In this document: piece by piece, positions 4,861-52,868 of the stretch
Numbering within the stretch: the first letter of the stretch is position 1
Layout: every line of letters begins with the position of its first letter
Assembly: GCA_964535655.1 (NCBI GenBank)
Contig: CAZHTP010000001.1
Span: 31,515-95,514, forward strand
Direction of reading: 5' to 3'
From: an uncultured Gammaproteobacteria bacterium
Lineage (GTDB): Bacteria; Patescibacteriota; Microgenomatia; JALYQM01
DNA length: 64,000 nucleotides
Notes under the pieces: generated by a model
Databases searched by the model: none
Told to the model about the DNA's origin: nothing
What the model saw: the letters and a program-made list of their open reading frames with translations, nothing else
Translations under genes and position numbers: made by a program

Positions 4861-4865
4861 CCGTT

Positions 4866-7430
4866 TTAGAGCATCTCAGCGCCTGTGTGCGGGTTAATTA
4901 CGTGCATTTTCTTATCTGTGGTCTCAGTTGGAGGGAAGACGAAACCTACTCCAGATCCGTTATAGTTAATTCCGCAATGCAGGTTATCAATCCCGGTTGC
5001 GCCGGTTATGCACATTTTTACTCCTGGGGCATCAAATAGTCTTGTATTTACATTGTATTTGGCCGTTCTCTCTTGAACAGTAAATGAAATTTGAGCTGTC
5101 TTATCAATACCCTCATCGGAAATACGTGTCTGCCAGTCTAAGTCCATCTCGTCTGATGTTTTGATGGGCTTTGACCATTTTCCTGGTCCGCCAATTGGTC
5201 CTGAGCGAATGCTGTAGTATATCTGGACAAATTGGTGATTACCATCCCCTCTGGGTATTGATGAATACACAGTATAGACAACAAATGTAGCCGTGTTTCC
5301 GTTTACATCTGTAACTGTTGCGATTTTTGGTGAAGCGTTATTCGCCCAGGTTTCAAATTCAGTCTTTCGGGTTGTTATGCGTTTTGTGATTAGTTCTTCT
5401 GGACTCCATTGACCTAATGGTGAACGAGCCAAGAATACTAAGCTGTTGTCATCATTACTTCCTAATCGGCCGCCTACGAGAACATTCCCTTGATTATCTG
5501 TCTGTATGGTAAACGGTATCGTATTAACTAATCCCACTGTGCTTGCGGAGAATGGCACTTTTTCAGATTCAACAACTGTTTTTAACGTCCTTGAAACCTC
5601 ATCAAACGCTAGCTTACTGTACAAAACTCGAGGGCAGTTATCGTCATCACACCACAGGAGATGAATATTATCGTCATTATCGGAAGCAAAGCGTACTGCC
5701 CACTTTACTCTATTACCTAAAAATGCGTTTGCGGTGGTGTTTTCTTTAAATACACCATTTATAGAATTAAAATACTTATATACTCCTCCAACATTAGTAA
5801 AAGCTATTTTTTCACCATTTTTTCGGATAAAAACTGCGGGAGTACCATAAAATTCACCATCGGCTACTTTTACAATTGGAAGAAGTGGACCGTTGGGAAG
5901 TTCATTAGTGGCTATAAAGAAGCCTTTTTTGTTGTCAGGGTTTTTATATACTTCTACAGCTACAGCCAAATGACCCGCTCTTTCTGTTATAGTAGGCCAA
6001 TGCTGTGCAACACCTAACCGATGACCTACCGGTTGTCCATCTACAAAGAGCGCTCCCGCACGCTCGTTTCCTGCCCTTAGGTAGGCAGAGTGATTCCCTG
6101 CAGTAACAACGGAAGCGCCGATTGGTAGTACATCAGGATTCATGAAACGAGAATCCGCTGAAATTTCAGCATATCCACCTAACTTATCTATATAGTCGTC
6201 AGTGCTGAAAGGTCCATTGCCGGTAGAGGTTGTTCCTGACTTAGTTGATAAAGAAAAGTGCATTTGAGCCGGTAGGTCCTTCATCCATTTTAAGTCATCT
6301 GGAGAGTATATGCCTAATTTGTCACCAAAAGCACGCGAGAAATATAACTCTGCTGCTTCAGTGTCGAACCCAATTTCATTGGTAGGAGCATGAATAGATG
6401 CAATCTTTAAGAATGGAAGTTTTGCTGGATCAACGAGTACGGTTGATTCTGGATTTTCAAATTGCTGTTGCGTATATTTCGGCTCAATTGGTGGCTCATC
6501 ATAACAGACCTTACTTGATAACGTTGTTGCAGGAGGACTAATATTTTCTTCTGAACAGAGTAAATTAGCGGGAAAGGGAAGCGATGCTGTTGTTACTGCA
6601 ACATCAGGTGATGTAGCGCAGATTCCCTTAAATGTACCAATATCAGGAAAAAAAGGTAACGCTGCCGGTGGAATTTCTTGACACGAATAACCGGCACTGC
6701 AGAATGAAGTTGGATCCCCTGGATTGCAGTAGCGGGTATCGTTTGAGATAACTGACGGAATTTTTCGTGCTAGCTCGCGAAGCCCATTGGGGTATGGTAT
6801 TGCAAAATCTTTTCGATCTGAATCGTCAATTGGATTTGAATCGGTAGGTTTTTCCTCATCTACCTCGCAGAGTTCGCCATCGTCTACTATACCGTTTGCA
6901 ATTACAGTATCGCAGCCACTTGCCGAACTTGGAATGGATTCTCCGATAGATAAGGTCCTTTTGGTAGTTTTTAAATATCTAATTACGCCGGTTTCACTTA
7001 CCGTGAAAGATCCCTTACCTATTCCGTCTCTGCTAATACAATATGTCTTCCAACGGTCGGAAAACTGCGGGTCGTTGACTGTAGTGCTGGTAAACGCTCC
7101 GATTACATTATAATAGTTAAGAAAGATTTGTGAAAAAACATTTGTTTTAATCGATGCTTCAGAATCTATAGTTACCGAGTATCCTCCTTCGGAGAATGTA
7201 TGCGAGAATCCAACATCATTCTTGGTATCGACGTCACTGGTGTGATGAGTAGTAAAGTGTGGCAGAGGAAATTGTCCGCCAAAATTGTAAAAAGCTGGGC
7301 ATGTTTGTGCACTTGCGGACGAAATGGGAGCTACTACCAGAGTCGAGAAAACGAGTACAGAACCGATAGCTCCGTACATAAATTTAGTGCTTTTTCTAAA
7401 TCGCCTATTGAACATGTACCCTCTTTTCAT
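4866..7430 (-). CDS. large secreted protein of unknown function (signal peptide, Cys-containing, possible BNR-like segments)
   Basis: The 854-aa ORF starts with a basic stretch plus hydrophobic core '...KFMYGAIGSVLVFSTLVVAPISSASAQ', which is a signal peptide. No catalytic motif was recognised. Confidence 0.6.
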   Translation of the reverse strand: MKRGYMFNRRFRKSTKFMYGAIGSVLVFSTLVVAPISSASAQTCPAFYNFGGQFPLPHFTTHHTSDVDTKNDVGFSHTFSEGGYSVTIDSEASIKTNVFSQIFLNYYNVIGAFTSTTVNDPQFSDRWKTYCISRDGIGKGSFTVSETGVIRYLKTTKRTLSIGESIPSSASGCDTVIANGIVDDGELCEVDEEKPTDSNPIDDSDRKDFAIPYPNGLRELARKIPSVISNDTRYCNPGDPTSFCSAGYSCQEIPPAALPFFPDIGTFKGICATSPDVAVTTASLPFPANLLCSEENISPPATTLSSKVCYDEPPIEPKYTQQQFENPESTVLVDPAKLPFLKIASIHAPTNEIGFDTEAAELYFSRAFGDKLGIYSPDDLKWMKDLPAQMHFSLSTKSGTTSTGNGPFSTDDYIDKLGGYAEISADSRFMNPDVLPIGASVVTAGNHSAYLRAGNERAGALFVDGQPVGHRLGVAQHWPTITERAGHLAVAVEVYKNPDNKKGFFIATNELPNGPLLPIVKVADGEFYGTPAVFIRKNGEKIAFTNVGGVYKYFNSINGVFKENTTANAFLGNRVKWAVRFASDNDDNIHLLWCDDDNCPRVLYSKLAFDEVSRTLKTVVESEKVPFSASTVGLVNTIPFTIQTDNQGNVLVGGRLGSNDDNSLVFLARSPLGQWSPEELITKRITTRKTEFETWANNASPKIATVTDVNGNTATFVVYTVYSSIPRGDGNHQFVQIYYSIRSGPIGGPGKWSKPIKTSDEMDLDWQTRISDEGIDKTAQISFTVQERTAKYNVNTRLFDAPGVKMCITGATGIDNLHCGINYNGSGVGFVFPPTETTDKKMHVINPHTGAEML

Positions 7431-30226: not shown

Positions 30227-30373
30227 GGATATACGATATCAAAGAAAATATTGATAGTAAAGCAGGGTCCGGGGTTCTTCGCGCAAGTTTATAGTAAAAT
30301 ACTTTAAGGTAACTCTGTCGTTTCACTCCAGAGTCAATTCCCCACAATCTAAAGTATCGCGGTTGGGGAATTG

Positions 30374-30448
30374 AGGTGCGGGCCGGATTCGAACCGGCGA
30401 TTTTACGGTTTTGCAAACCGTTGCAATTGGCCACTCTGCCACCGCACC
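30374..30448 (-). tRNA. tRNA-Cys (GCA)
   Basis: The reverse complement folds as a cloverleaf. Acceptor is GGTGCGG/CCGCACC, T-arm is GCCGG-TTCGAAT-CCGGC, anticodon stem is ACGGT/ACCGT with loop TTGCAAA (anticodon GCA), and the discriminator is U as expected for tRNA-Cys. No encoded CCA. Confidence 0.85.
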
Positions 30449-37670: not shown

Positions 37671-39377
37671 CTAATATTTTAAATCTCTTACTTTTAACTG
37701 CACTGTTTTTTTACCGTTCCATTCGTTGATATCAATATGATACGCAAGATCGATTGGTAACCCGGGGCGAATTTGTGGTGAGTACGATCCAAAGCCAAAC
37801 GCAATTGCTTCAAGCGGTTTATTCCCTGATTCTTGTTGGGTTACTTTTAATTTTAAATGTTTATTTTCTAATCCCAATGTTCTTACTTCTATGACGTTTA
37901 CTTTTTCCGTTGAGAATAATGGTTCTTCGGCATTAATTCCAAACGGCTTTAATTCTTGGATTGCAGAATGGAGTTGCTCGGAAATGTGTTGAAGTGGTAG
38001 ATTACAATCAATATCCAAGCTTGGATCAGTCATATCTTGAGTTATTCTGTGACTGGCAAATATGCGCATGCTTTCTGTAAAGCTTTTTAACGATCCTGGC
38101 GTTACCGAAAGCCCTGCAGCCATAGGATGTCCACCATAACTTAGCAGATGTTCGCTACTTTCAGTGATAGCATCGATAATATTGAAACCTCGGACAGAGC
38201 GTGCTGATGCTTTAAACATATTGGCATGATCGGCTGTTGATCCCCATACGATCGTTGGTTTGTAGTATTCTTCAACCATTCGTGAAGCAACGAGGCCAAT
38301 TACACCCGGATTCCACTGTGGGCTTCCTAAAATTAAAATTTTATGATCTTGCTGTTCTTCGGCCTGTTTCCTTGCAGTATCAATGAGTGTTTGTGTTAAA
38401 TCCTTCCTATCGTCATTAACCATGTTAACTTTTTGAATTAATTTATCAGCTTTTTGTTGGTTATTGGTACAAAGTAGGCGCAGCGAATCCATGGCGTGTT
38501 CAAGTCTTCCCATGGCGTTAATACGGGGGCCAATAATATATCCAATCTGATAGCATTGTGTATCCTTTAGATTAAAATTAGCTGACTTGGCTAAGGCTAG
38601 TAATCCTGGGCGGGTAGTTTTTCTCAATTGCGGTAGCCCATGAATGACCATTGTTCTTGCTTCGCCTTGCAAGGGTATTAAATCACAGACAATCCCGATG
38701 GTAGCTAGCTCCAGAAGCTTGAGAGCATCCGATTTAGGATCAGCAGGATCGTAGGATTCTGTTAACAAATTCTCAATAGATTCGCCAGTTATTTCAGCAA
38801 GTAACTGTACGGAAGTTTTCCAAGCAACACCTGCTCCGGAAATGCGGGAATCGTGGATAATAAGGCAATTTTCCGGAAGTAATTCTGGTTTATGGTGATG
38901 GTCGGTTACTATTACCTCAACTCCTTTTTCTTGCGCGTAGGCTATTTGTTTGCGACAGCTGATTCCTTGGTCCACAGTAATTATGAGGTCTGGTTTTTCG
39001 TTTTCCAGTAGACTGTCTATACCAATTATGGACATGCCATATCCTTCACGTTCGCGGTGGGGAATGTATGGTTTTGCCTTGGCTCCTAGTTTATACAATG
39101 TTTCCCACATTACGGCTGTTGCAGTTACACCATCGGCGTCATAATCACCATAAACAATAATCCTTTCTTTTTTTTCAATCGCTTCTTTTATCCTTAGGAT
39201 AACTTTTCTCATATCGCCAATTTCAAAGTCGATATCGCTCAGGGAAGGGTTTAAGAATGTCTTGATAACAGAGTCATTGTTAAGCGCACGATTTTTATAA
39301 AGAACTTTGAGGATGTCTGAAATTGATGTTATTTGTAGTGGCTCTTTGTTTATTAGATTCCAAATCTTTTGTTTCAT
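37671..39377 (-). CDS. recJ: single-stranded-DNA-specific exonuclease RecJ
   Basis: DHH motifs 'ERIIVYGDYDADGVT', 'LIITVDQG' and 'VIVTDHHH', plus a DHHA1 region 'GGHPMAAGL'. Confidence 0.88.
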   Translation of the reverse strand: MKQKIWNLINKEPLQITSISDILKVLYKNRALNNDSVIKTFLNPSLSDIDFEIGDMRKVILRIKEAIEKKERIIVYGDYDADGVTATAVMWETLYKLGAKAKPYIPHREREGYGMSIIGIDSLLENEKPDLIITVDQGISCRKQIAYAQEKGVEVIVTDHHHKPELLPENCLIIHDSRISGAGVAWKTSVQLLAEITGESIENLLTESYDPADPKSDALKLLELATIGIVCDLIPLQGEARTMVIHGLPQLRKTTRPGLLALAKSANFNLKDTQCYQIGYIIGPRINAMGRLEHAMDSLRLLCTNNQQKADKLIQKVNMVNDDRKDLTQTLIDTARKQAEEQQDHKILILGSPQWNPGVIGLVASRMVEEYYKPTIVWGSTADHANMFKASARSVRGFNIIDAITESSEHLLSYGGHPMAAGLSVTPGSLKSFTESMRIFASHRITQDMTDPSLDIDCNLPLQHISEQLHSAIQELKPFGINAEEPLFSTEKVNVIEVRTLGLENKHLKLKVTQQESGNKPLEAIAFGFGSYSPQIRPGLPIDLAYHIDINEWNGKKTVQLKVRDLKY

Positions 39378-39685
39378 CTCTCTATTTATAGATCATTGAG
39401 TATAAAAGTCAACTTGTTTTTTAAAAATAACATGACTATTATTCTGTGTACTTAACAATTTTTAAGAAAGGACTCTCTCATGAACGCTTCTGACTCTCAA
39501 GAGATTCGAAATATTTTCCGTGAGGAAATGAATGTTGTTTTTAAGCCAATTCACTTTGGTTGAAATAGAAAACACTTTGGGTATCTATTCTGATATGTAT
39601 AAAATTAATCGTGATACTAGTATGAATTTAGAAATGCGGTTAACACTGCTGGAAAAGCGTCGCTAATGATATACTTATAGCTGCT

Positions 39686-41125
39686 ATGGCATCGGGGATT
39701 AGTGTTCCAAACTATATCATTTACATTCTAAAAGCGCTTTCAGAGGCAGGATTTGAAGGCTATATTGTGGGAGGTCCGGTTAGGGATATCCTAGTTGGCC
39801 GCGAGCCTAATGACTGGGATGTTACCACTAATGCAACTCCTGATGAGATTCAAAAAATCTTTCCCGAAAACTTTTATGATAATACGTTTGGTACGGTTGG
39901 TGTGGTACTTCGGGTAAAAGAGAATCAAGTGCTGTCGGAAAAAGATGATAGCGTTGATCCGATGGTTGTTCATGTAACTACGTTTCGCAGTGATGGGGAG
40001 TATTCTGATTTTCGTCGACCGGATTCAGTGGAGTGGGGCAAATCTATCGAAGATGATCTGCAACGACGCGACTTTACGATTAACGCTGTGGCTTTACGAA
40101 TTGAACAGGATATTTATTCTCAACTTCCATTACTTTGGGAAGAAACGTTCTCTAAACTATTTCCTGGTGATTTTGTTCTTATTGATCCGTATGGTGGTTT
40201 AGTCGATCTACAAAAAAAATTAATTCGTGCGGTAGGGAGTCCTGTTGAACGATTCCAGGAAGATGCGTTGCGCATGCTACGGGCGGTTCGATTTTCCTGT
40301 CAGTTAGGCTTTGAAATTGAAGGGGAAACTAAAAATGCCATCAGTACAAAATGTGAGAATTTAACTCATATTTCGGGCGAACGAATTCGCGATGAATTTT
40401 TTAAGATTTTATCTTCGGATCGTCCGTATGAAGGAGTTCAATTGCTAGATCAGCTAGGATTGCTGCAGTTTATTTTTCCTGAATTAGTTGCGGGTCGGGG
40501 AATGGATCAACGAGGGCATCATATTTACGATATTTTCGAACATAGTCTACATGCTCTCAAGTTTTGCCCTTCACCAGATCCGATTGTCCGGCTCGCCGCT
40601 CTTTTACATGATATTGGAAAAGTGCCTACGCATGAGGTTCGTGATGGAATAAACACGTTTTATAACCATGATATTGTTGGTGGAAAAATGGTGCGTGAAA
40701 TTGCGTATCGCTTGCATTTATCTAAAAAAGACCGGGAAAAATTATATACGCTAGTTCGATTCCATATGTTTAGTGTGGATACTATTCAAACTGATGCTGC
40801 AATTCGTCGATTTATAGTAAAAGTTGGTGCTGAAAATATTAATGATATGGTGGATTTGCGGATCGGTGATAGGCTAGGGAGTGGGACAAAAGATCCAGAA
40901 GGATGGAGACTTAAAGAGTTTAAAAAGCGCATTGAAACCTTGTTAATGCCAACATTTACAGTGAAAGATTTAGCCATTGATGGCCGTGATGTAATGCGAA
41001 TATTAAATATTTTGCCGGGTCCAAAGGTTGGCGAAATCTTGAATGCTTTGTTTGACGAAGTACTTGATGACCCTGAGAAGAATACTACGACATACTTAGA
41101 GAAAAGAGCTCTCTCTTTTATCTGA
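39686..41125 (+). CDS. cca: CCA-adding tRNA nucleotidyltransferase (class II, with HD domain)
   Basis: 'GYIVGGPVRDILVGREPNDWDVTT' is the NTase head. 'DALRMLRAVRFSCQLGFEIE' is present. HD motif 'HSLHALK...LLHDIGK'. Confidence 0.85.
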   Translation: MASGISVPNYIIYILKALSEAGFEGYIVGGPVRDILVGREPNDWDVTTNATPDEIQKIFPENFYDNTFGTVGVVLRVKENQVLSEKDDSVDPMVVHVTTFRSDGEYSDFRRPDSVEWGKSIEDDLQRRDFTINAVALRIEQDIYSQLPLLWEETFSKLFPGDFVLIDPYGGLVDLQKKLIRAVGSPVERFQEDALRMLRAVRFSCQLGFEIEGETKNAISTKCENLTHISGERIRDEFFKILSSDRPYEGVQLLDQLGLLQFIFPELVAGRGMDQRGHHIYDIFEHSLHALKFCPSPDPIVRLAALLHDIGKVPTHEVRDGINTFYNHDIVGGKMVREIAYRLHLSKKDREKLYTLVRFHMFSVDTIQTDAAIRRFIVKVGAENINDMVDLRIGDRLGSGTKDPEGWRLKEFKKRIETLLMPTFTVKDLAIDGRDVMRILNILPGPKVGEILNALFDEVLDDPEKNTTTYLEKRALSFI

Positions 41126-42896
41126 GTAATTTTTGCATGATTTCATTTACACCTGATATTACTTGTGGGTTTGACAATAAATCTAGATAATCTTGAAGTT
41201 GTTTTCGGTCAATTAACCCTGAATATACTTTTGGCCTTCTGATAAGATTAAGCAAGAACTGGACTTCGGCTTTAATTCTTTCCCACTCAACTTGAAGTGG
41301 AGTCATGGCAATAGTAGGCTTGTTGGTACCTAAAATTCTTCTATGTGCACCGCTTCGCATCAGTTCCCCAAATTGAGGGTCATTTAATGTTCTAATTCGC
41401 TGACTTTTATCGACCTGGAGAATGTCCATTAAGTACGCGATGTAATGATCGTTGAATAAGCGAGTTATCAGTGGCTCGTGGTCTCCGTTTTGGAATAGTT
41501 TACGGACATAATATCCTTCATGGAAGAATTCTTTATTGTATTTTGTGTTTAGGTGGTCCTTAACAGTTAACACTTGTACCTCTATTGATTTTCCATCAAT
41601 TATTAAATCAAATTGTATGACTTTGCGCTTGGAATTCGTAGCGCGGTTATGTGTATTCTCTGTATAACTGAAGAATATAGGTTCTCCTTCTTGTGGATCA
41701 GCCAAAAATCCCTCTTCGAATATGTTTTGTGTGTACCCGTGCTTGGAGTATGTAAATGAGTTATTTGACTTTCTTATACTGCTGACTAATTTGCTCATGA
41801 GGCTTGGAATGTCTGATTCATCTCTCACGATAAAACGTAATCCATTACTATCATCCGAAATTGCGCCGTTTTTGATTCCTCCTTTGGCGATGGCCCGAGG
41901 CATTTCTTTGTATCTACTGGTAACTTCCACCTGGATAATTTTTCCTTGAAAATTAACTTCACGGTAGGGCATTGCATGGCGCATTACAATGTGTCCTGGT
42001 TCTTGCGGTAGTGGCCCAGAGTCAGTCCAGTCAATGCATTCCCCTGAATGTAGGCTGTGCAGTGCATACACGTCTCTGTCGTGCAACTGGTCAGCTTTTG
42101 AATGGGTGTTTGGTCTGTGCCAAAATTCGGTGGCGTTTAGGATACCGTATAGCTCGTCCATGATTCCGTTTTGGTTTTCTGATGCGACAATTTCTCCAAT
42201 CCCGTGTAGTGTTGTGACAAATTTTGTTTGAGCTTCACTGCGCGCTTTATATGTAAGATCTTGATCAAAAGCAATTCGCAATATTTGTCGAATGCCTCGA
42301 GATGCTTTTACTTCTTGCTGCCACTCGAGCGCTGCATGCAGATCACTGATTATGTCAATTGAGTTGTTTACATGAGTTAGGGCCTTCAATTGATTTTTTC
42401 TTGGAGCGCCGCTGGTTCTTATGTAGTCTGTAAATCTTACTTTTATTCCCTCGATTATGAGTAGTAACCTGTTCCTTTCTTGTTCTGCTAATTCTTCGGC
42501 GTGTTGTGCTGCCACTTTTTGATACGTATCCGTATGAGCGCGGGAGGTAGATTGGGGTAACTTAAATCTTTCTATTAAGAAGTTAGCAACTCTTGCTTCT
42601 TGGGCGTCGATTTCTGATTTATCTGTAGTTTTAAGTGCTCTTTCAATTTCTTGTAATCCTATTGGTGATTCAGCATCGCCGGATGCTATATATCTTACGA
42701 TCTGCAGTAAGTCTTTTGCTGGTTCTTGTTCTGAATCTGGTGCTTCTTCTTGGAGTTGTCTATGCGTGTGGTCTGCTGTCTGCCTGCGTTGTGCTTCAAG
42801 TGCTTGAAAGGCGCCGTTATTGCCAATGAAGTTCCAGATATTAACGTCTGGATTAACTTGTTTTGGTAAAGATAATTTTTCAGTCATATATATCAC
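41118..42896 (-). CDS. protein with C-terminal RelA/SpoT-like nucleotidyltransferase (SYNTH-like) domain and a ~330-aa N-terminal region of unknown function
   Basis: The C-terminal half aligns by eye with synthetase motifs of the Rel in this window. 'RFIVRDESDIPSL' matches 'RIILQDESIENCY'. 'SKHGYTQNIF' matches 'KANGYRSLH'. 'SIEVQVLTVKDHLNTKYNKE' matches 'VMEVQIRTKIMHEQAEYG'. 'QGKIIQVEVTSRYKEM' matches 'EGRAKHMYSLWKKL'. The N-terminal half is unrecognised. Start is GTG at 42896 or ATG at 42887. Confidence 0.5.
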   Translation of the reverse strand: MIYMTEKLSLPKQVNPDVNIWNFIGNNGAFQALEAQRRQTADHTHRQLQEEAPDSEQEPAKDLLQIVRYIASGDAESPIGLQEIERALKTTDKSEIDAQEARVANFLIERFKLPQSTSRAHTDTYQKVAAQHAEELAEQERNRLLLIIEGIKVRFTDYIRTSGAPRKNQLKALTHVNNSIDIISDLHAALEWQQEVKASRGIRQILRIAFDQDLTYKARSEAQTKFVTTLHGIGEIVASENQNGIMDELYGILNATEFWHRPNTHSKADQLHDRDVYALHSLHSGECIDWTDSGPLPQEPGHIVMRHAMPYREVNFQGKIIQVEVTSRYKEMPRAIAKGGIKNGAISDDSNGLRFIVRDESDIPSLMSKLVSSIRKSNNSFTYSKHGYTQNIFEEGFLADPQEGEPIFFSYTENTHNRATNSKRKVIQFDLIIDGKSIEVQVLTVKDHLNTKYNKEFFHEGYYVRKLFQNGDHEPLITRLFNDHYIAYLMDILQVDKSQRIRTLNDPQFGELMRSGAHRRILGTNKPTIAMTPLQVEWERIKAEVQFLLNLIRRPKVYSGLIDRKQLQDYLDLLSNPQVISGVNEIMQKLLR

Positions 42897-42910
42897 TAAC
42901 CATTAACTGA

Positions 42911-42940
42911 AAGACCCCCTCTTTTGGAGGGGGTCTTTTT
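42911..42940. promoter_or_regulatory. perfect GC-rich hairpin flanked by A- and T-runs, in the shared upstream region of two divergent genes
   Basis: 'aagaccccctc-tttt-ggagggggtcttttt' forms a 9-10 bp G/C stem with a T-tract on the + strand. It lies ~20 nt upstream of the start of the minus-strand gene. Confidence 0.45.
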
Positions 42941-43259
42941 AAAATTTTTAATTTAAATGGCTTTCGATTACCCCCTCAACTTATTCGTGTACAAGAGGCC
43001 ACGAATAATGAACTCATTATTAAATGAGAGGTGTGCGTAATTGGAAAAACGTGTGCTTTTATTCATATAACAGACTATTTTTAACTTAATGCTATTGACT
43101 TGTCAAGTCTTAATTCGTTGGCGAGAAAGGTGTTAGCAGGTTTATAACTATTACTTAAATTAATACTTGGCAATAATTTAAACTTGATTTATAATTAAAG
43201 TTATAGGATATTGTACTAAATATTTCATTTTTGTCAAATCAATACTATAATCGTTTCTT

Positions 43260-45695
43260 ATGCTTACCGAGACTGGTGCTATCACTGATCGACCGAGTGG
43301 ATCGCTTACTGCAATTTTAAGGGGAACGTATTCTCGAGCAAAAGATATTCTTCAATATCAAAATACGCGGTTTAATAACGCAATCGAGCTTATAGGGCTA
43401 GATTATGAAGCGTTCAAAACTCGAAATAGATTGCGGTTTTTAGGTGATTACTTGCAAGCTGAAGATTATCCTCAACTAGCTGAAAAATATCGAATAGCTC
43501 CTGAATATGAATATATTCGTGTACTTCAGGAACGGGTGATGTACTACTACAAAGACCCTGATCATGTAAGTTTAATTTTGCGAGCAGCAGAATTTGGTGA
43601 AAATGAGAAGCGAAGAAATGAATCTAGTACCGGTAACGTAAAGAAGCGAGAATCGACTGGAAGAGATGCGTATGAACACCCGGTTGAAGTTGCAACCGTG
43701 GCGATGGATCACTTGTATGAGGAATTTGGTGTCTTACTTTCTCCGGATGTAATTGTGGCTATTCTTTTACACGATTCAATGGAGGATGACAATGTATCGT
43801 ACGAGAGCATTTGTAGTAATTTTGGAGTGCGGGTTGCAGATATTGTTTTTCGCATGACAAAAATTAAAGGTGATCAATTTGAAGGAATGGATCCGTTTGA
43901 GGCTGAGGCTCTTACGGTGGAACGATTGCTTAAATGTATGCAGCATGACCCGCATGGAGAGATGCCTCCTGACTTGGTTGTACTCCTTATAAAGTTTTTT
44001 GATCGAGAGGTTAATTCGCGAACGTTTAAAGAGATGAAGGATAAGAGAGATGCTTCAGGAAAAATAGTTGAGACAGCAGCCGATCGGCAAAGAAGAAAAG
44101 GGGAGGAGACTCTTCATATCTATTATACCCTAGCTGATTACTTCAGAATGTGGAAGTTACGAGATCAAATGGGTGACCGGTCTTTTGAATGTGTTGATCC
44201 GGAGGGGTACCGAAATGCTAAGCGTCTACAAGATTCAAATTCAGCTGATGTTTTGGCTATTGGAGAGAACATTGAAAAAATAATTGATCGGTATTCTGCA
44301 CGTGTACCATATGTTCGTGCTTATCAGGATCGGCATTTGCGTCGTATCCGTCGTGCTGGTGTACTTGATCATTTTGTACCAAAAGTTGCCGATATTCGGA
44401 CTCCTAGTGCTTATGAAATACATCAGCGAATTTTTGAGGAAGGAATGACTGCTGATGAGGCATTGCGTCCAACTATTTACATTGATGCACAGAATCACAA
44501 CCAAAGAGGTAAATTATTTGAGACGTTGTTACGATTCAATCCTTATTCAGGACAAGTAAATTATGAGACAGCTCAAGAAGATGCTGTTGTTGTAGCTAAT
44601 CAGGATCAGCTTACCATTCGTAACTTTAACTTAACACCAGACCAACGTGTTACTATCGTTTTACGTAATGCAGAAACAAGCTGGGTAACCAATATGCCTC
44701 TCGCTCTCAGAGTACAATTTCCTCCGACTGCCGACAGCGTTTTAGCGGAACGAATTACCTATTCTCATTTTTCAAGCCACTTTACGCCGAGAATTGGTGA
44801 GGGAGTTGTTGATAGAATTGATGTCTTTTTAGATGAAATACGTAAAAAAGATTTGACGTACGTATATGTCGTAAATGGATATAAGAAGGATCATTTAAAT
44901 TTTGCGGAACGTGTACTACTTAAAGAAGGCGCAACAGTGCTCGATTATTTATGTCGAAAATATAGTTTAGAAGAAATAGAATCTTTCTCAGAAATCTATA
45001 TTTTTGATCCTTTGACTGGTAAGAAAAATCTTATTAATGATCGATTAGGTGATGTCTTACCACGAGGTTGTTATGTTCTGCTATCTAAAAATAAGCGTAA
45101 AGTATTTCATTACAAACCGAATCCTCGGGACTTGTTTTGTCAAAAAACTGATCCAGCATTGGATTTTATACTGCGAAGGATGTCGGAGCATGTTGCCATT
45201 GATGAAAATTATCTCCTTCATGTTGAGGATTCACTTATTGAAAGAGGCAAGGGTATCTTTTCAGATGCTTTATTTGACGAAGTAGAAGGGCCTGATGTTC
45301 AAAACCCTGAATTTTATGTCGATGAGCTGTTTGATTTCTTTTCAAATGTCTATGGTAGTGAATTTAAGGTAAAGGTATTTAATTTAGCGCTTTCCTATGA
45401 TACCAAAGAGAGAGAGCATTTCTTAAGTGAAGTTATGACATTTATTAATCAACGCAGTATCAACCTGGCGTTATATCCTGGGAGCTCAGGATGTTACACC
45501 GCAGAGCTGAGTGACTTTAAATTGCTCGCACTTCGTGAATATGTTGAAAGCGTTGGTGGAGTTATGCCGTTTGAAAAGACGGTAAGTGCAAATGGTTCTT
45601 TGCGGGTAATTTTACGTGGATACTTAGCTATCAGAGAAGCCTCAGATCTTCCAGATATTGTCCAAGAATTATCTAAGTACATCAAAACTATATAA
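43260..45695 (+). CDS. protein with RelA/SpoT-type HD (ppGpp-hydrolase-like) domain and long uncharacterised C-terminal region
   Basis: 'YEHPVEVATVAMDHLYEEFGVLLSPDVIVAILLHDSMEDD' (HD motif) and 'ETLHIYYTLADYFRMWKLRDQMGDRSF' align with Rel 'HPAAVALIVAEMGLDDASIIAALLHDVVEDT' and 'ETLEIYAPLASRLGMGQIRGELEDLAF'. No synthetase motifs follow. About 450 aa of unknown sequence lie C-terminal. Confidence 0.6.
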   Translation: MLTETGAITDRPSGSLTAILRGTYSRAKDILQYQNTRFNNAIELIGLDYEAFKTRNRLRFLGDYLQAEDYPQLAEKYRIAPEYEYIRVLQERVMYYYKDPDHVSLILRAAEFGENEKRRNESSTGNVKKRESTGRDAYEHPVEVATVAMDHLYEEFGVLLSPDVIVAILLHDSMEDDNVSYESICSNFGVRVADIVFRMTKIKGDQFEGMDPFEAEALTVERLLKCMQHDPHGEMPPDLVVLLIKFFDREVNSRTFKEMKDKRDASGKIVETAADRQRRKGEETLHIYYTLADYFRMWKLRDQMGDRSFECVDPEGYRNAKRLQDSNSADVLAIGENIEKIIDRYSARVPYVRAYQDRHLRRIRRAGVLDHFVPKVADIRTPSAYEIHQRIFEEGMTADEALRPTIYIDAQNHNQRGKLFETLLRFNPYSGQVNYETAQEDAVVVANQDQLTIRNFNLTPDQRVTIVLRNAETSWVTNMPLALRVQFPPTADSVLAERITYSHFSSHFTPRIGEGVVDRIDVFLDEIRKKDLTYVYVVNGYKKDHLNFAERVLLKEGATVLDYLCRKYSLEEIESFSEIYIFDPLTGKKNLINDRLGDVLPRGCYVLLSKNKRKVFHYKPNPRDLFCQKTDPALDFILRRMSEHVAIDENYLLHVEDSLIERGKGIFSDALFDEVEGPDVQNPEFYVDELFDFFSNVYGSEFKVKVFNLALSYDTKEREHFLSEVMTFINQRSINLALYPGSSGCYTAELSDFKLLALREYVESVGGVMPFEKTVSANGSLRVILRGYLAIREASDLPDIVQELSKYIKTI

Positions 45696-45714
45696 TTGTA
45701 CAAAATCGAGTTTA

Positions 45715-45905
45715 TGATATACTAAGCACAAAGCAATGATCCTGTGACGCAGGAGAGCTGAAAGAAGAACAGTCATTTTATGACCCATTAGAACTTTCCG
45801 GGTTTGCCCGTTATCGCTACAATGAGTATAAAGTAAGGTGGCACCACGCCCAATAAGCGTCCTTGCAGAATTATTATTAGAAATAATTTGCAGGGATTTT
45901 TTAGT
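45715..45905 (+). promoter_or_regulatory. candidate T-box riboswitch leader with terminator upstream of aspS
   Basis: T-box-like 'AAGUAAGGUGGCACCACGCC' (45830-45849; compare the consensus AAUUAGGGUGGNACCGCG). It is followed by hairpin 'ccttgcagaatt...aatttgcaggg' and a T-run at 45897-45902. An 'AGAGA'-type motif sits in the upstream stem ('gcaggagagctgaaagaagaacag'). The -35/-10-like 'ttgtac...gatatact' lies at ~45697-45725. Confidence 0.45.
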
Positions 45906-45920
45906 ATTTAGGAGGTTTAT

Positions 45921-47318: not shown

Positions 47319-48245
47319 ATGCGTGTTCTTGCTAATCCTTCATTCTATTTTTTACTACTTTTACTTGTAGTTTTTACACAAGTGCCTGGGTATTCTTATT
47401 ATCGCAATTTAGATTATTCTCAATTGCGGGCAGCGTATCGGCCTTTACCGCAGTGGTTTACCGATGTTCCTGTAGCTCTATATCCCGAAAAAACCGGAGT
47501 TGAAAATTTTCCGAGCCTAAGTGCTGAAGGAATATTTATTATTGATGTAGATTCAGCTGTTCCGATTTACCAAAAAAATGCTCATCAGGAATTATTCCCT
47601 GCTTCTACAACTAAAATCATGACGGCGCTAATTGCGCTTGAAGAATATCGGCTGGATGATGTTATTGAAGTTCCTGAGGCGAGTTTTTCCGGCTCCTTAA
47701 TGCGACTTGTTTTTAAAGAGCGCATAACGGTACGAAATCTTTTAAATGGGCTTCTTATCAATTCAGGTAATGATGCCGCGGATACTTTTGCTTTAACCTA
47801 TCCGGGAGGATACCCCGCATTTATTGATCGGATGAATTCGCGGGCTACTGAGTTGGGTCTGCGAAATACTCACTTTGTTAATCCTTCAGGGCTTCCTGAC
47901 ACAAATCATACAATGTCAGCCTGGGATTTAGGTCAACTGGCCGTTTATGCTTTGCATAATGAAACATTTAAATCCATAGTGAGCACTAAAGAAAAGACCA
48001 TTTATGGATTAACTGGTGAGAGGCATGTTTTAAAATCGACTAACAAATTGCTTGGTGACGTTCCTGGTTTGGATGGGGTTAAAACAGGATATACTGAGGA
48101 CGCTGGTGAAGTGCTTGTATCTACTGTGCAACGTAATGGTCATCGCATCTTAGTGGTGCTCCTTAAGAGTGCAGATAGATTTGGCGAAACTAAATCTGTC
48201 GTTGAGTGGATATACAGAAACTACGAATGGAAGAAAATAGAATAG
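47319..48245 (+). CDS. D-alanyl-D-alanine carboxypeptidase (S11 peptidase, PBP5/6-like)
   Basis: Signal peptide. SxxK 'ASTTKIMTAL', SxN 'LINSGNDAAD', KTG 'GVKTGYTEDAG'. Confidence 0.8.
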   Translation: MRVLANPSFYFLLLLLVVFTQVPGYSYYRNLDYSQLRAAYRPLPQWFTDVPVALYPEKTGVENFPSLSAEGIFIIDVDSAVPIYQKNAHQELFPASTTKIMTALIALEEYRLDDVIEVPEASFSGSLMRLVFKERITVRNLLNGLLINSGNDAADTFALTYPGGYPAFIDRMNSRATELGLRNTHFVNPSGLPDTNHTMSAWDLGQLAVYALHNETFKSIVSTKEKTIYGLTGERHVLKSTNKLLGDVPGLDGVKTGYTEDAGEVLVSTVQRNGHRILVVLLKSADRFGETKSVVEWIYRNYEWKKIE

Positions 48246-48246
48246 T

Positions 48247-49374
48247 TTATTCTTGGTTTATATATCCTTCTTGGACCGCGGGTACGAAAGCCCTAAAGAG
48301 GAAACTACTATCACTTACTTTATCTCCTTCAAATACCCACACTGGCTGAATGTTCTCTTGAAAAGTTGGCGGCTCATAATAAGCCAAGTAAATACTTCGA
48401 ATATTATACTCATCTCCTGGATTTGAAGGGCTCAAAATTGTCGCTTTACCATTGTTTAGCATCTCCCAAGCTGTTTTGGTGGAACGGGTTGGGTACACTC
48501 CAAGAACTACTGGACGGGTATTAATTGGCCAGAAGGTTATTTCTGCATTAACCAATCTATCTTGAAAATCTTTTGAATTATCACTTCTGGTAATCCCGGT
48601 ATAGGTAAAATTAATTAAACTTTTAGTGGTATACGGGCTAATTATTGGTATTCCGTTAATAGGTAAGCGAGGAATATCTACTTTTGTTAAGTTCGCTTGA
48701 AGTTGGGAAGCGACTGGAGCAGATGTCTGGAGAGTAGGATCAAGGTAAATATAACTTCCGTGTGGTGCAGTCTCAGTTTCTAGTATGTTTTTCTGTTGGC
48801 GTAGTTCAGGTCTGGCTTGGCCTAAATATGAAACTGCGTTTCGTTTGGCTTTATCTATGGTAGGTGTTGCGCCTCGTTCCAGTGATACATATGCCGCCAA
48901 ATTGTCATAACTATAGTGAAGATTGTAATAGGTAAAATCTACTTCGAGTTTTTTATTTGGATCGGTTGGATCTTGAAACAGGAAAGTCCGGTCCGTGTTC
49001 TTTACCGGATTTACATTAGGGAACCCGAGTATTCCAGCGAGTTTTACAGAACTGACTTGGTAATCTAATTCCGGGCTTTTTTTAACTACTTCGTATACTG
49101 TAGCGCTACCTGTTCCTTCTGGAATTGTTCCGTCAATTGTTTCGAGGATAAATTTCTTTCCAGCGCTGGTTGTTGTGCCGGCTGGCAATGCTGGTGCAGA
49201 AAGTACGCCGTATGTTGGGTTTATGTAGGGAGTAGGCGTAGGCGTAGGGCGAACACAACATAGGGTGTATGCTGCTCTAAAGGTATATCTGAGTGCAATA
49301 AATGCGATTATTGCTATCCCAAGTATAATCGCGCCTTTTTTAGTAGCGTCAGCGGTAGAGGTAAGAGAAGCCAT
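48247..49374 (-). CDS. membrane-anchored/secreted hypothetical protein
   Basis: An N-terminal TM/signal anchor 'AIILGIAIIAFIALRY' is followed by a Thr/Pro-rich segment. No catalytic motif. Confidence 0.45.
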   Translation of the reverse strand: MASLTSTADATKKGAIILGIAIIAFIALRYTFRAAYTLCCVRPTPTPTPYINPTYGVLSAPALPAGTTTSAGKKFILETIDGTIPEGTGSATVYEVVKKSPELDYQVSSVKLAGILGFPNVNPVKNTDRTFLFQDPTDPNKKLEVDFTYYNLHYSYDNLAAYVSLERGATPTIDKAKRNAVSYLGQARPELRQQKNILETETAPHGSYIYLDPTLQTSAPVASQLQANLTKVDIPRLPINGIPIISPYTTKSLINFTYTGITRSDNSKDFQDRLVNAEITFWPINTRPVVLGVYPTRSTKTAWEMLNNGKATILSPSNPGDEYNIRSIYLAYYEPPTFQENIQPVWVFEGDKVSDSSFLFRAFVPAVQEGYINQE

Positions 49375-49418
49375 AACTCATATGAGTATAGCTAGTGGTA
49401 TGTTAAAATGCAATTATT

Positions 49419-50897
49419 ATGGATACATCTGTACGTACTAGAATTGCCCCTTCGCCCACGGGTTTCCCTCATATTGGAACTATTTATCAGGTTTTATTTG
49501 ATTTTGTTTTTGCCCATAAGTATAACGGACAATTTGTGGTACGTATTGAAGATACCGACCGTAATCGTTTTGTTGAAGGAGCGGAGGAAGTTATCTCCCG
49601 CAGTCTACACTGGTTTGGTCTTGATGGTGATGAAGATCCCTGGAAAGGTGGTCCGTATGCTCCGTATCGTCAGTCTGAGCGACTTCAGACATATACGGTA
49701 TATGTTGAAGAACTTATTCAAAAGGAACGTGCGTATTATTGTTTTTGTACTAAAGAGCGTTTAGAAGAGATGCGTAAGCAGCAGGAAGCTAACCATCGGC
49801 CGCCAATGTATGACAGGCATTGCCGCAATTTAACATCCCATGAGGTTGCAGATCGTCTGGATAGTGGTGTGCCTCATGTTGTTCGTATGCGCGTGCCGGA
49901 TGGTGAAGTGATTAAAATTCATGATCTTTTGGTGGGGGATGTTGAGTTTAGAAGTGAGCTAATTGATGACCAGGTCATCTTGAAGGCGGATGGTTTTCCT
50001 ACTTACCACTTAGCTGTGGTAGTTGATGATCATTTAATGCAGATTTCGCATATTATACGTGGAAGAGAATGGTTACCTTCAACTCCAAAACATATTTTGC
50101 TGTATACTTTTTTTGGATGGGACGTTCCTGAGCATATTCATTTGCCACTTATTTTGAATAGTGAGGGTAAAGGCAAATTGTCAAAGCGCCATGGGCATGC
50201 TTCGGTTGACTATTACCGTAATTTGGGATATTTGCCTGAAGCGGTACTTAATTATCTTTCTAATATTGTATGGAATCATCCAGAGGGTAAAGAGATTTAT
50301 GATTTGGATGAGTTTACTCGACTTTTTGAAGTTGAAAAGATTACTTCTCAAGGAGCGCGTTTTGACTTAAAAAAATTAGATTGGGTTAATGGACAATGGG
50401 TTCGTAATATGTTGGATATTGAGTTAGTGTCACGTTTAACGACGCATGATGAAGTTGCTGGTACGCCGTATTCTAAATACTCCCCCGAAGAAATTGAGCG
50501 AGTTTTGCCGCTCGTTAAAGATCGACTTAATTTACTTTCAGGATTTGATGATTTAGTAACTATTTTCTATGAGGATATTGAAAAAATAATTGAGTCTCCT
50601 GAACAATGGAAACTGCAGCTATTAGGAAAACATTCTGATTTCGATCTTACTACTAAAATGCTTGAGAGAGCTTTGGGCGTTTTAGAAAAGACTGAAACCT
50701 GGACTCATACGGTACTTGAGGAATTGATGCGTGGTGTACTTGCTGATGAGGCATGGGAAATAGGGGATTTCTTTATGGTTCTTCGTGTAGCGGTAACTGG
50801 TCGTTCGGCAACTCCGCCGTTGTTTGAAACAATGGAGGTTTTGGGTAGAGAAGTTTCTCTTGAGAGAATAAGAAAAGCTTTTAAGATTTTTAGTTAA
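49419..50897 (+). CDS. gltX: glutamate--tRNA ligase
   Basis: 'RIAPSPTGFPHIGTIYQVLFDFVFA' is the HIGH motif region. 'VRIEDTDRNR' is present. 'KLSKRHG' is the KMSKS motif. Confidence 0.92.
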   Translation: MDTSVRTRIAPSPTGFPHIGTIYQVLFDFVFAHKYNGQFVVRIEDTDRNRFVEGAEEVISRSLHWFGLDGDEDPWKGGPYAPYRQSERLQTYTVYVEELIQKERAYYCFCTKERLEEMRKQQEANHRPPMYDRHCRNLTSHEVADRLDSGVPHVVRMRVPDGEVIKIHDLLVGDVEFRSELIDDQVILKADGFPTYHLAVVVDDHLMQISHIIRGREWLPSTPKHILLYTFFGWDVPEHIHLPLILNSEGKGKLSKRHGHASVDYYRNLGYLPEAVLNYLSNIVWNHPEGKEIYDLDEFTRLFEVEKITSQGARFDLKKLDWVNGQWVRNMLDIELVSRLTTHDEVAGTPYSKYSPEEIERVLPLVKDRLNLLSGFDDLVTIFYEDIEKIIESPEQWKLQLLGKHSDFDLTTKMLERALGVLEKTETWTHTVLEELMRGVLADEAWEIGDFFMVLRVAVTGRSATPPLFETMEVLGREVSLERIRKAFKIFS

Positions 50898-51331: not shown

Positions 51332-51423
51332 ACAATAATACTATCACATTCTTTTTAAATTAGAAAGAGAAAAAGAGTCTTGTCAGGATGTCGTTTTTAT
51401 TGCATACTCAATTTTAATTAAAT

Positions 51424-51573
51424 ACATCAAGAGTGATAGGGAGAGTTCCGGCTCGTTAATCTATCCAGCAACCGATTCAATTAGAAAACGGTGCTCCATC
51501 CGGCCCGAAAGGGAAGATGCGGTCATGTACATGACAATTTAGCCTCGTCTTCCTAGTAGGGAGAGAGGTTTTT
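51424..51573 (+). promoter_or_regulatory. SAM-I (S-box) riboswitch with terminator/SD-sequestering hairpin upstream of metK
   Basis: 'AUCAAGAG..AGGGAG..GGC..UUAAUCUAUCCAGCAACC....CGGUGCUCCAUCCGGCCCGAAAGGGAAGAUG' matches the S-box conserved segments (AUCAAGAG, GCAACC, GGUGCU, GAAAG..GAUG). Hairpin 'cctcgtcttcc..gggagagagg' plus a T7 run lies immediately before the metK ATG. The promoter 'ttgtca-17-catact' is at ~51380-51408. Confidence 0.55.
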
Positions 51574-51575
51574 TT

Positions 51576-52691
51576 ATGGCTACAATAAGCCGTTCGTTTA
51601 CTTCTGAGAGTGTTTGTGCTGGGCACCCCGATAAAATATGTGATCAAATTAGCGATGCGATAGTTGATGCAGTGTTGCATGAAGATCCCTACGGTCGTGT
51701 AGCAATAGAAACATTAGTTACAACTAATAAGGTTATTTTGGCAGGCGAAGTAACTAGCCGTGCTGTTATCGATTATGCAAGAGTTGCGCGAGATCAAATT
51801 GAAAGATTAGGTTACACAGATGATAAATATGGTTTTTCTCATAAAGCATTAATAGATGTATATATTCATGAACAGTCATCCGAGATTGCAGTTGGTGTAG
51901 ATGATGCTGGAGCTGGTGATCAAGGGATGATGTTTGGCTATGCTTGCCGTGAAACAAATAATTTTATGCCGATGCCTATTGCTATTGCTCACGCACTCAC
52001 TGCGCGGATTGACGAAGTGCGCGAAGAGAAGCTATTACCATATCTTCGTCCTGATGGAAAAGCTCAAGTGACTGTTGGCTATGACAATGATGTACCTGTT
52101 GAAATTGTATCGGTTGTTTTAGCAGTTCCTCATGAAGAATCGGAAGAATTGGAAAAAGTGAAAGATGATCTTTACCGGCAGGTTGTTTTGCCTGTTCTTT
52201 CGGGATTTGAGCTATCCTATCCGCAATTTCATTTAATAGTTAATGGAACCGGTGTTTGGCATATTGGTGGGCCGGCGTCAGACACCGGAGTGACGGGACG
52301 AAAAATTGTAGTGGACACCTATGGAGGGTATGCTCGAGTAGGGGGTGGAGCCTTTAGTGGCAAAGATCCTACAAAAGTTGATCGCTCGGGTGCATATGCT
52401 GCTCGGTATCTGGCGAAGAATCTCGTTGCTCACCGTTTTGCGGATAAGGCGGAAGTCTCACTTGCGTATTTTATTGGAGCTAAAAAGCCGGTAATGCAGG
52501 AAGTAGAAACCTTTGGTACGGCTAAGAAATCTGATCAAGAGATTAAAGCCTTTGTATCTGAATTGTTGGATACTTCAGTTCAGGGGATTCTGGAAGGGCT
52601 GCAGTTGCGAAAACCATTGTACTTAGCTACTGCTACTTATGGTCACTTTGGACGCAAGGGCTTCCCGTGGGAGGAAATAGTTCAGAAATAA
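51576..52691 (+). CDS. metK: S-adenosylmethionine synthase
   Basis: 'FTSESVCAGHPDKICDQISDAIVDAVL' and 'GGGAFSGKDPTKVDRSGAYAARYLAKNLVA' are canonical MetK motifs. Confidence 0.93.
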   Translation: MATISRSFTSESVCAGHPDKICDQISDAIVDAVLHEDPYGRVAIETLVTTNKVILAGEVTSRAVIDYARVARDQIERLGYTDDKYGFSHKALIDVYIHEQSSEIAVGVDDAGAGDQGMMFGYACRETNNFMPMPIAIAHALTARIDEVREEKLLPYLRPDGKAQVTVGYDNDVPVEIVSVVLAVPHEESEELEKVKDDLYRQVVLPVLSGFELSYPQFHLIVNGTGVWHIGGPASDTGVTGRKIVVDTYGGYARVGGGAFSGKDPTKVDRSGAYAARYLAKNLVAHRFADKAEVSLAYFIGAKKPVMQEVETFGTAKKSDQEIKAFVSELLDTSVQGILEGLQLRKPLYLATATYGHFGRKGFPWEEIVQK

Positions 52692-52759: not shown

Positions 52760-52830
52760 TGCCGGATGGTGAAATGGTATCACAAAGGACTCTGAATCCT
52801 TTTTTCTAGGTTCGAATCCTAGTCCGGCAA
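52760..52830 (+). tRNA. tRNA-Gln (CTG), compact 71-nt form
   Basis: Cloverleaf. Acceptor is TGCCGGA/TCCGGCA with a U1-A72 pair as in bacterial tRNA-Gln. D-stem is GTGA/TCAC. Anticodon stem is AAGGA/TCCTT with loop CTCTGAA (anticodon CUG). A 4-nt variable loop, T-arm CTAGG-TTCGAAT-CCTAG. No encoded CCA. Confidence 0.75.
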
Positions 52831-52868
52831 CAATCTGACTTGCAAATAGAACCTGGTATACTTATTCC

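Follow-up and report, generated by a model that had tools for sequence, protein, structure and literature searches.

The aspS locus and its leader

The 64,000-nucleotide stretch of contig CAZHTP010000001.1 analyzed here (the window) carries an aspS gene for an aspartyl-tRNA synthetase (AspRS), and the region upstream of this gene (45730-45902, + strand) is a genuine T-box-type leader that probably functions as a tRNA-Asp-sensing riboswitch, controlling aspS by transcription attenuation on a minimal scaffold (Table 1). The aspS product belongs to the archaeal-type aspartate--tRNA(Asn) ligases, with a score of 467.6 bits for NCBIfam NF003483 (cut-off, 353), and its homologues carry the annotation of non-discriminating AspRS. 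Judging from the relatives of its AspRS and glutamyl-tRNA synthetase (GluRS), which bear the names Patescibacteria group, Levybacteria, Woesebacteria, WWE3, and Daviesbacteria, and from a GC content of about 39%, the host genome is of the candidate phyla radiation (CPR) type. Both the type-2 AspRS gene and the low-GC, CPR-like context had been recognized in the original prediction of a T-box at this site, which was made from the sequence alone.

Table 1. Features of the aspS leader and flanking genes, in window coordinates.
Feature	Position	Strand	Details
Gene for HD-domain protein, 811 aa	43260-45695		upstream neighbor of the leader
Promoter-like region	45695-45723	+	-35 TTGTAC 45695-45700 (weak); extended -10 TGaTATACT 45715-23
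Parts of the extended -10	TG 45715-16; TATACT 45718-23	+	read from the sequence; putative promoter
Ultrashort Stem I with kink-turn (K-turn)	45733-45758	+	RF00230 alignment, covariation, RNAalifold
Specifier GAC (Asp)	45746-45748	+	purine G45749 next
Stem II	45760-45798	+	basal helix 45760-64/45794-98; distal hairpin 45772-84
Stem IIA/B	45799-45818	+	IIA 45799-802/45807-10; F-box-like CCCGUUA 45807-13
Single-stranded linker replacing Stem III	45819-45832	+	AAAG leads into antiterminator
Antiterminator (T-box proper)	45833-45866	+	A1 45833-38/45861-66; A2 45846-49/45857-60
Intrinsic terminator	45860-45902	+	hairpin 45860-45896 (15 pairs, one bulge) and UUUUUU 45897-45902
Shine-Dalgarno (SD) sequence AGGAGG	45910-45915	+	ahead of aspS
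aspS open reading frame, 442 aa	45921-47249	+	ATG at 45921

Evidence for a T-box-type leader

The Rfam T-box model (RF00230) matches positions 45727-45867 with 48.3 bits, in an alignment that spans model positions 1-219, and this is the only T-box-like site within the window. The match has an E-value of 7.6e-10 on the local stretch and of 1.6e-7 when the whole window is searched with all 4227 families. It encompasses the T-box sequence AAGGUGGCACCACGCC (45835-45850), on which the original prediction had centered and which the model match and the covariation described below now substantiate. The core of this sequence, GGTGGNACCRCG, has a single match in the window (45837-45848) and is not significant by itself, as 0.3 chance matches are expected per window and 28 of 100 shuffles contain at least one. 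A chance likeness of a 14-16-mer to the T-box consensus, lying beside an ordinary terminator, could be argued from these figures, but the E-value of the full model and the covariation seen at the same gene in at least ten genomes have already refuted it, and its probability can be regarded as negligible.

The comparative data set comprised 160 loci retrieved through AspRS homologues from genome and metagenome collections, together with contigs of the closest relatives. Ten CPR leaders (the window, L161, L163, L164, L165, L168, L170, L002 from WWE3, L006, and L008), whose AspRS proteins range from about 66 to 89% identity, were aligned, and statements on invariance and covariation refer to this alignment unless otherwise indicated. 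When the structure derived from the window is imposed on the ten leaders, 97.3% of cells pair, as opposed to 33-55% when the partners are slid by 1-3 columns, and changes on both sides are seen in 14 of 26 pairs, values that none of 500 shuffles reached. RNAalifold, run without a supplied structure, recovers the same helices, with compensatory changes in 17 of 29 pairs. A custom covariance model (R1), used to search for leaders across the loci, adds members upstream of aspS in L011, L001, L003, L024, L015, and L104, and within the window it finds no match other than the aspS leader. Four of these divergent leaders (L011, L015, L024, and L104) had been missed by the strict motif GGTGG.ACC and were recovered later with R1.

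Putative promoter, Stem I, and specifier codon

The putative promoter of the leader is echoed in the CPR homologues, where a TATAMT hexamer occurs at the same spacing, 9-10 nt before the base of Stem I, and transcription probably starts near position 45730. A scan for consensus promoters and terminators called neither element at the leader, because the terminator contains a bulge and an inner stem made up of A and U only, and because the -35 element matches the consensus at only three of six positions. Since the promoter lies about 10 nt upstream of Stem I, no further Stem I sequence can be appended to the structure described here.

At its base, Stem I comprises the C-helix pairs G45733-C45758 and C45734-G45757, a 3-nt bulge (AAU) and tandem G.A/A.G pairs of G45738 and A45739 with G45755 and A45756. 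The latter bases are invariant and align to the UGA...GAG of the RF00230 model, providing the sequence signature of a K-turn. The K-turn supports a hairpin stem of only 4-5 bp (45740-44 with 45750-54), in which alignment columns 15-27 and 17-25 covary (CG/GC and UA/AU), capped by the terminal loop UGACG (45745-49). In the RF00230 alignment, 76 positions of the canonical Stem I are thus replaced by 5 nt. The original prediction had remarked on the unusual compactness of the leader, and this stands; the cause, which it had not identified, is the absence of the upper Stem I and of Stem III. Ultrashort (US, or class II) T-boxes have been defined by a short Stem I with the specifier in its terminal loop and by retention of the Stem II domain (10.1101/2023.02.28.530422; PMC7583486).

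Within the terminal loop, the triplet GAC (alignment positions G20, A21, and C22) is invariant, while the preceding base may be U, C, or A and the next base is A or G. The same triplet occupies the same loop in L001, L003, and L011 and in actinobacterial aspS leaders. The invariance of GAC amid varying flanks, always with a purine next to it, identifies it as the specifier, and it agrees with the amino acid of the downstream AspRS. A specifier codon can therefore be named, as anticipated, but not at the place first proposed for it, an AGAGA/GAA element of Stem I with an AAC or GAC specifier at gcaggagagctgaaagaagAACag. That element was misassigned: its GGAGAGC corresponds to the K-turn and the 3' half of Stem I, and the remainder belongs to Stem II, as detailed below.

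Bacterial tRNA-Asp has the anticodon GUC and the discriminator base G73, a base that it shares with tRNA-Asn. As the enzyme family charges both tRNAs, the leader might sense tRNA-Asn, or tRNA-Asp and tRNA-Asn together, with GAC reading the GUU anticodon through a G.U pair at the first position, and the AAC found in the same loop of two other leaders (L015 and L104) suggests that the lineage has explored Asn sensing. Nonetheless, only tRNA-Asp matches GAC perfectly, the function of the AAC-bearing leaders is doubtful because their T-box halves are degenerate or absent, and, according to TBDB, T-boxes favor a single tRNA species and disfavor wobble. Sensing of tRNA-Asn in either form is consequently improbable, and we favor GAC as the specifier of a leader that senses tRNA-Asp.

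Stem II and the IIA/B pseudoknot

All cells pair in the basal helix of Stem II, and its distal helix covaries in the RNAalifold structure. Between them lies an internal loop of the S-turn type, formed by 5' AAGAAC (45765-70) opposite 3' AUUAGAA (45787-93), in which the bases GAA and A-UAGA are invariant. This loop matches the S-turn seen in the ileS T-box structures of Nocardia farcinica and Mycobacterium tuberculosis, where five stacked purines clamp the codon-anticodon helix (PMC7583486). The window has a U at the position of the bulged G of the S-turn, for which most homologues have G, and the equivalent G67U substitution has been reported to be nearly neutral (PMC7583486).

The assignment of this region to Stem II bears on whether the leader could be a canonical T-box, with a Stem I of normal length containing the AGAGA/GAA element and an internal specifier loop with AAC or GAC at 45768-45770. 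The stretch GAAAGAAGAAC does look like the purine runs of specifier loops, and AAC would suit tRNA-Asn, a substrate of non-discriminating AspRS. The same stretch, however, supplies the 5' side of Stem II and the S-turn purines, and pairs with 45794-98 through a helix in which all five pairs show compensatory changes; the presumed AAC (45768-70) is replaced by AAA or AAG in L164, L168, L006, and L008, four of the ten leaders; and GGGAAGAAC recurs in the aspS leaders of Chloroflexi, in which GAC is not at this motif but in a long Stem I. Together with the position of the promoter, which leaves a longer Stem I no room, these observations make a canonical architecture extremely improbable.

Downstream of Stem II, 92.5% of cells pair in Stem IIA, where two pairs covary, and the IIA loop (45805-07) forms the pseudoknot IIB with 45816-18. 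For IIB, 80% of cells pair and all three pairs show compensatory changes, with covariation in seven leaders (e.g., ACG/CGU, GAG/CUC, UCAGC/GCUGA, and AAAUC/GAUUU). An alternative IIB between the IIA loop and a conserved CAAUGAG was dropped in favor of this register, 4-7 nt after IIA, which covaries. A hairpin at the position of Stem III occurs only in L164 and L003, and A104, A105, and G107 of the linker (alignment numbering) are invariant.

Antiterminator and terminator

In the antiterminator, all cells of helices A1 and A2 pair and three pairs covary. The two helices flank a 7-nt bulge, UGGCACC (45839-45), which is invariant except for the N position, with C in eight of the ten leaders and U in the other two. 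The UGGC of the window (45839-45842) bears out the C read after UGG in the original prediction. A UGGU bulge is found in L168 (2849-2857), in L170 (2905-2913), and in all Firmicute aspS leaders (L032, L124, L130, L131, L147, and L156), which implies that the U faces G73 in a wobble pair or that the tRNA has A73 instead.

The antiterminator alone folds at -9.2 kcal/mol and the terminator hairpin at -14.6 kcal/mol (z = -4.2 relative to shuffles). The terminator is the minimum free energy (MFE) fold of the 3' domain, with energies of -14.6 to -21.3 kcal/mol. Both window energies fall within the ranges typical of TBDB entries (-7.4 ± 4.2 kcal/mol for antiterminators and -19.5 ± 7.9 kcal/mol for terminators). 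The 5' arm of the terminator includes the entire 3' strand of A1 (45861-66), so that the two folds are mutually exclusive. The fold exclusivity and the placement of the terminator, whose U-run ends 19 nt before the ATG, both agree with what had been proposed for this leader. Twelve of 14 CPR leaders possess a hairpin and U-run of this kind, even though the stem sequences are unrelated.

All ultrashort T-boxes described so far are translational (10.1101/2023.02.28.530422), and the actinobacterial aspS leaders (7/7) sequester the SD with a CCUCC placed just 3' of the antiterminator. Translational or dual control of the window aspS, through an alternative helix that hides the ribosome-binding site, would follow this actinobacterial precedent. 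The competing helix of the window, however, stops at 45896 and gives way to six U; the SD lies outside the switch helix, no anti-SD is present beside the antiterminator, and in the MFE structure the SD and the U-run are joined by weak A-U and G-U pairs. Given, in addition, the recurrence of hairpin and U-run among CPR leaders at distances of 1-70 nt from the start codon, control at the level of translation is highly improbable, and transcription attenuation is the mode of control that we retain.

Orthologous aspS leaders

Leaders upstream of aspS in other phyla adopt different designs on the same gene. Chloroflexi aspS leaders (L027, L038, L137, and L138) have a long Stem I, with GAC in an internal loop of those inspected, and a mixed platform, with U-run terminators in several of them, whereas those of the Firmicutes (L032 and others) combine a long Stem I, a UGGU bulge, and a terminator. 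The actinobacterial leaders (L062-L075) present an ultrashort Stem I with GAC in its terminal loop and no U-run, and the CPR leaders share this Stem I and loop but follow a strong hairpin directly with at least five U in 12 of 14 cases. Among the aspS leaders found, the combination of ultrashort Stem I and terminator is thus seen only in CPR. The UGGC bulge of the window also occurs in Chloroflexi and Actinobacteria aspS leaders, and the GGGAAGAAC...AGUA motif of its Stem II in those of the Chloroflexi. A recent transfer of aspS and its leader from the Firmicutes or the Actinobacteria was considered and is unsupported, with AspRS identities of 37-43% and differing architectures.

An SD sequestrator (CACCUCC/GGAGGUG) and GAC in the terminal loop were observed in L062, L064, L066, L068, L075, L126, and L135, which include Nocardia and Flexivirga. 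The actinobacterial aspS leaders indicate that the US class already reaches beyond ileS; to this the CPR leaders add a terminator.

Several further leaders depart from the window form. In L015 (4213-4341, Shapirobacteria) and L104 (176-268), the layout of K-turn, ultrashort Stem I, Stem II, and IIA is the same, but the loop contains AAC (Asn); their AspRS proteins are of the same type, with 48-49% identity. The 3' half of L015 reads GGUGGAGCC (UGGA), and the 5' arm of its terminator is complementary to the T-box core, while L104 has no recognizable core. The leader of L024 (1433-1610, Paceibacterota), with the T-box core GGGUGGCACCGCG, a terminator, and a U-run, is located some 850 nt ahead of aspS and has a divergent Stem I region. 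It precedes an open reading frame of 233 aa and unknown function (1722-2423), whose overlap with the aspS start suggests an operon of the two genes; the adjacent trpS (81-1064) has no leader.

Proposed mechanism

The elements described above suggest the following course of events. From a start about 3 nt upstream of Stem I, the nascent RNA would fold into the K-turn, a Stem I of 4-5 bp displaying GAC and its purine in the loop, Stem II, and the IIA/B pseudoknot. The GUC anticodon of tRNA-Asp would pair with GAC, and the purines of the Stem II S-turn would clamp the codon-anticodon helix sideways, as in actinobacterial ileS T-boxes. Neither Stem III nor a distal Stem I platform for holding the tRNA elbow is available. 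When tRNA-Asp is uncharged, its free G73-CCA end would pair with UGGC and stabilize the weak antiterminator (-9 kcal/mol), allowing readthrough into aspS. With aminoacylated tRNA, the 3' strand of the antiterminator would instead be drawn into the stronger terminator (-15 to -21 kcal/mol), ending transcription at the U-run. Binding of the tRNA, sensing of its charge, and termination in vivo are predicted here from conserved sequence and structure.

A number of observations weigh against this mechanism. The long Stem I with its internal specifier loop, AG bulge, and distal loop, which provides the tRNA-elbow platform, is missing, and the distal platform has been termed essential in transcriptional T-boxes (PMC7583486). 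The RF00230 alignment reveals no hairpin at the position of Stem III (45819-45832). In the window itself, pseudoknot IIB is limited to two Watson-Crick pairs, and, if the invariant G-C pair closes, the Stem I loop has just 5 nt, which is tight for a codon-anticodon helix of 3 bp. Neither a tRNA-Asp nor a tRNA-Asn gene was detected by ARAGORN in the window or across the roughly 175 loci. The leader is, moreover, patchy within CPR, where it precedes about 10 of some 63 CPR-type aspS loci (about 85% lack it), and the close relatives L173 and L176 have none.

The leader of the closest relative, L001 ('bacterium isolate MDV bin63', 4863-4981), whose AspRS is 88% identical to that of the window, has lost Stem II and IIA/B in a clean deletion of 49 model positions, and retains the K-turn, the UGGC antiterminator, a strong terminator and its U-run, and the GAC loop, which has a broken closing pair and measures 7 nt. 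With a sensing domain of about 85 nt and two possible tRNA contacts, it may be either a minimal working T-box or one recently disabled. L175 (2845-2936) has a divergent relative of the L170 leader, in which GAU, likewise an Asp codon, occupies the loop and UUGGUAU stands in place of the core; IIA/B and the 3' half of Stem II have been lost, with terminator, U-run, and aspS intact. Erosion in L001 and L175 and outright loss in L173 and L176 imply that the leader is dispensable in some lineages.

The score of the RF00230 match also counts on this side, since it falls below the Rfam 15 gathering score of 93 bits, at which the model reports no T-box in the window or in 14 related loci. According to the original prediction, a score below the model threshold would have pointed to coincidence. 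The threshold, however, cannot separate real from false aspS T-boxes, for canonical controls with a long Stem I also score below it (84.1 bits for the Firmicute L032, and 83.4 and 64.5 bits for L027 and L038 of the Chloroflexi), and the lower score of the window is explained by the reduction of 76 Stem I consensus positions to 5 nt and of Stem III to nothing. The actinobacterial ultrashort leader L062 is not detected by RF00230 even at E <= 0.01. Annotation pipelines that rely on gathering scores will hence under-report aspS T-boxes, missing the whole CPR class and canonical ones as well.

Taken at face value, the missing parts could mean that the leader is a decaying relic that no longer senses tRNA and persists as a constitutive partial terminator or as neutral sequence, which we view as the main rival to a working riboswitch. 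Transcriptional T-boxes are believed to owe their affinity and speed to Stem III and the distal Stem I platform, both missing here, and the weak IIB of the window, the further deletions in L001 and L175, and the absence of the leader from L173, L176, and most CPR aspS loci would fit a process of decay. Against this, all helices have been kept by compensatory changes over AspRS identities reaching down to about 66%, which indicates purifying selection, and GAC, the UGG-ACC bulge, the GA/AG of the K-turn, and the S-turn purines are all invariant. An unrelieved strong terminator before what is possibly the sole AspRS gene would be deleterious, and the same Stem I/Stem II design has been shown experimentally to work in actinobacterial ileS T-boxes. 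Decay is therefore an improbable explanation, and a working tRNA-Asp-sensing attenuator remains the favored one.

Relationship to described T-boxes

Translational US T-boxes were reportedly described for the ileS genes of Mycobacterium smegmatis, M. tuberculosis, and N. farcinica by Sherwood et al. in 2015, and crystal structures are said to date from 2019. With US ileS T-boxes the window leader shares the K-turn, a very short Stem I with the specifier and a 3' purine in its terminal loop, the lack of an elbow platform, the Stem II S-turn, IIA/B, and the UGGN bulge in a two-helix discriminator. It differs from them in having an intrinsic terminator with a U-run instead of an SD sequestrator, GAC and aspS instead of AUC and ileS (tRNA-Ile), no Stem III, and a CPR rather than an actinobacterial host. 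The TBDB class II model is labeled 'isoleucyl translational' and was built from Actinobacteria, and all members of the US class have been said to regulate ileS (10.1101/2023.02.28.530422).

With class I T-boxes (RF00230, exemplified by the tyrS type of Bacillus subtilis and by the glyQS type without Stem II), the leader has in common the competition between terminator and antiterminator, the T-box sequence, the 7-nt bulge, K-turn, S-turn, F-box and IIA/B, and a specifier matching the aminoacyl-tRNA synthetase. It lacks the upper Stem I of about 76 nt, with its specifier loop, AG bulge, and platform of interdigitated T-loops, and Stem III, so that its sensing domain spans about 138 nt versus 219 model positions in class I.

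An Asp-specific, terminator-coupled ultrashort Stem I in CPR is new with respect to described T-boxes. Surveys including TBDB place T-boxes in the Firmicutes, Actinobacteria, Chloroflexi, Deinococcus-Thermus, and a few Proteobacteria, and full-text searches returned no paper linking T-boxes with Patescibacteria, CPR, or Saccharibacteria; these searches covered the literature, so that an unremarked entry in Rfam or TBDB is possible. Within that scope, the extension of the known T-box range announced by the original prediction is upheld, and T-box regulation is placed in a group whose regulatory RNAs have barely been charted. The leader is mechanistically still a T-box, and its predicted function offers a natural test of the elbow contact in co-transcriptional sensing. 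It would break two generalizations, namely that US T-boxes are translational and confined to ileS, and that transcriptional T-boxes need the elbow platform for fast co-transcriptional capture. The three designs found on one orthologous gene amount to a natural experiment on the scaffold needed for kinetic as opposed to thermodynamic control, and small tRNA-responsive transcriptional switches of this kind could serve as templates for engineering.

A more far-reaching reading, which we consider doubtful, is that CPR hold a natural reduction series of co-transcriptional T-boxes, from the window form of about 138 nt, devoid of elbow contact and Stem III, to the L001 form of about 85 nt. If both forms were functional, contacts with the anticodon and the NCCA end would suffice for kinetic, transcription-coupled sensing of tRNA charge, and the elbow platform could no longer be deemed essential for transcriptional T-boxes. 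In that event, the aspS leader common to CPR and Chloroflexi could also stem from a common ancestor.

Genomic neighborhood

The upstream neighbor of the leader encodes a protein in which HD_4 is the sole domain detected and which resembles a RelA/SpoT hydrolase. It forms part of a conserved neighborhood (37671-45695 and 47319-50897) common to the window, L161, L163, and L164, whose members are RecJ, a CCA-adding enzyme (39686-41125), a 592-aa protein of unknown function, the 811-aa HD_4 protein, aspS, an S11 D-Ala-D-Ala carboxypeptidase, a 375-aa unknown protein, and gltX. The gltX gene of this neighborhood has no leader element. The window also contains genes for tRNA-Gln(CTG) at 52760-52831 and for tRNA-Cys at 30373-30448 (- strand).

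A SAM-I/IV riboswitch aptamer is present at 51419-51551 (+ strand; 43.8 bits against a gathering score of 41.1, with a SAM-I match of 38.2 bits). It lies directly upstream of metK (51576-52691), the product of which matches all three S-AdoMet synthetase domains, and constitutes a second 'Gram-positive-style' riboswitch in this CPR genome.

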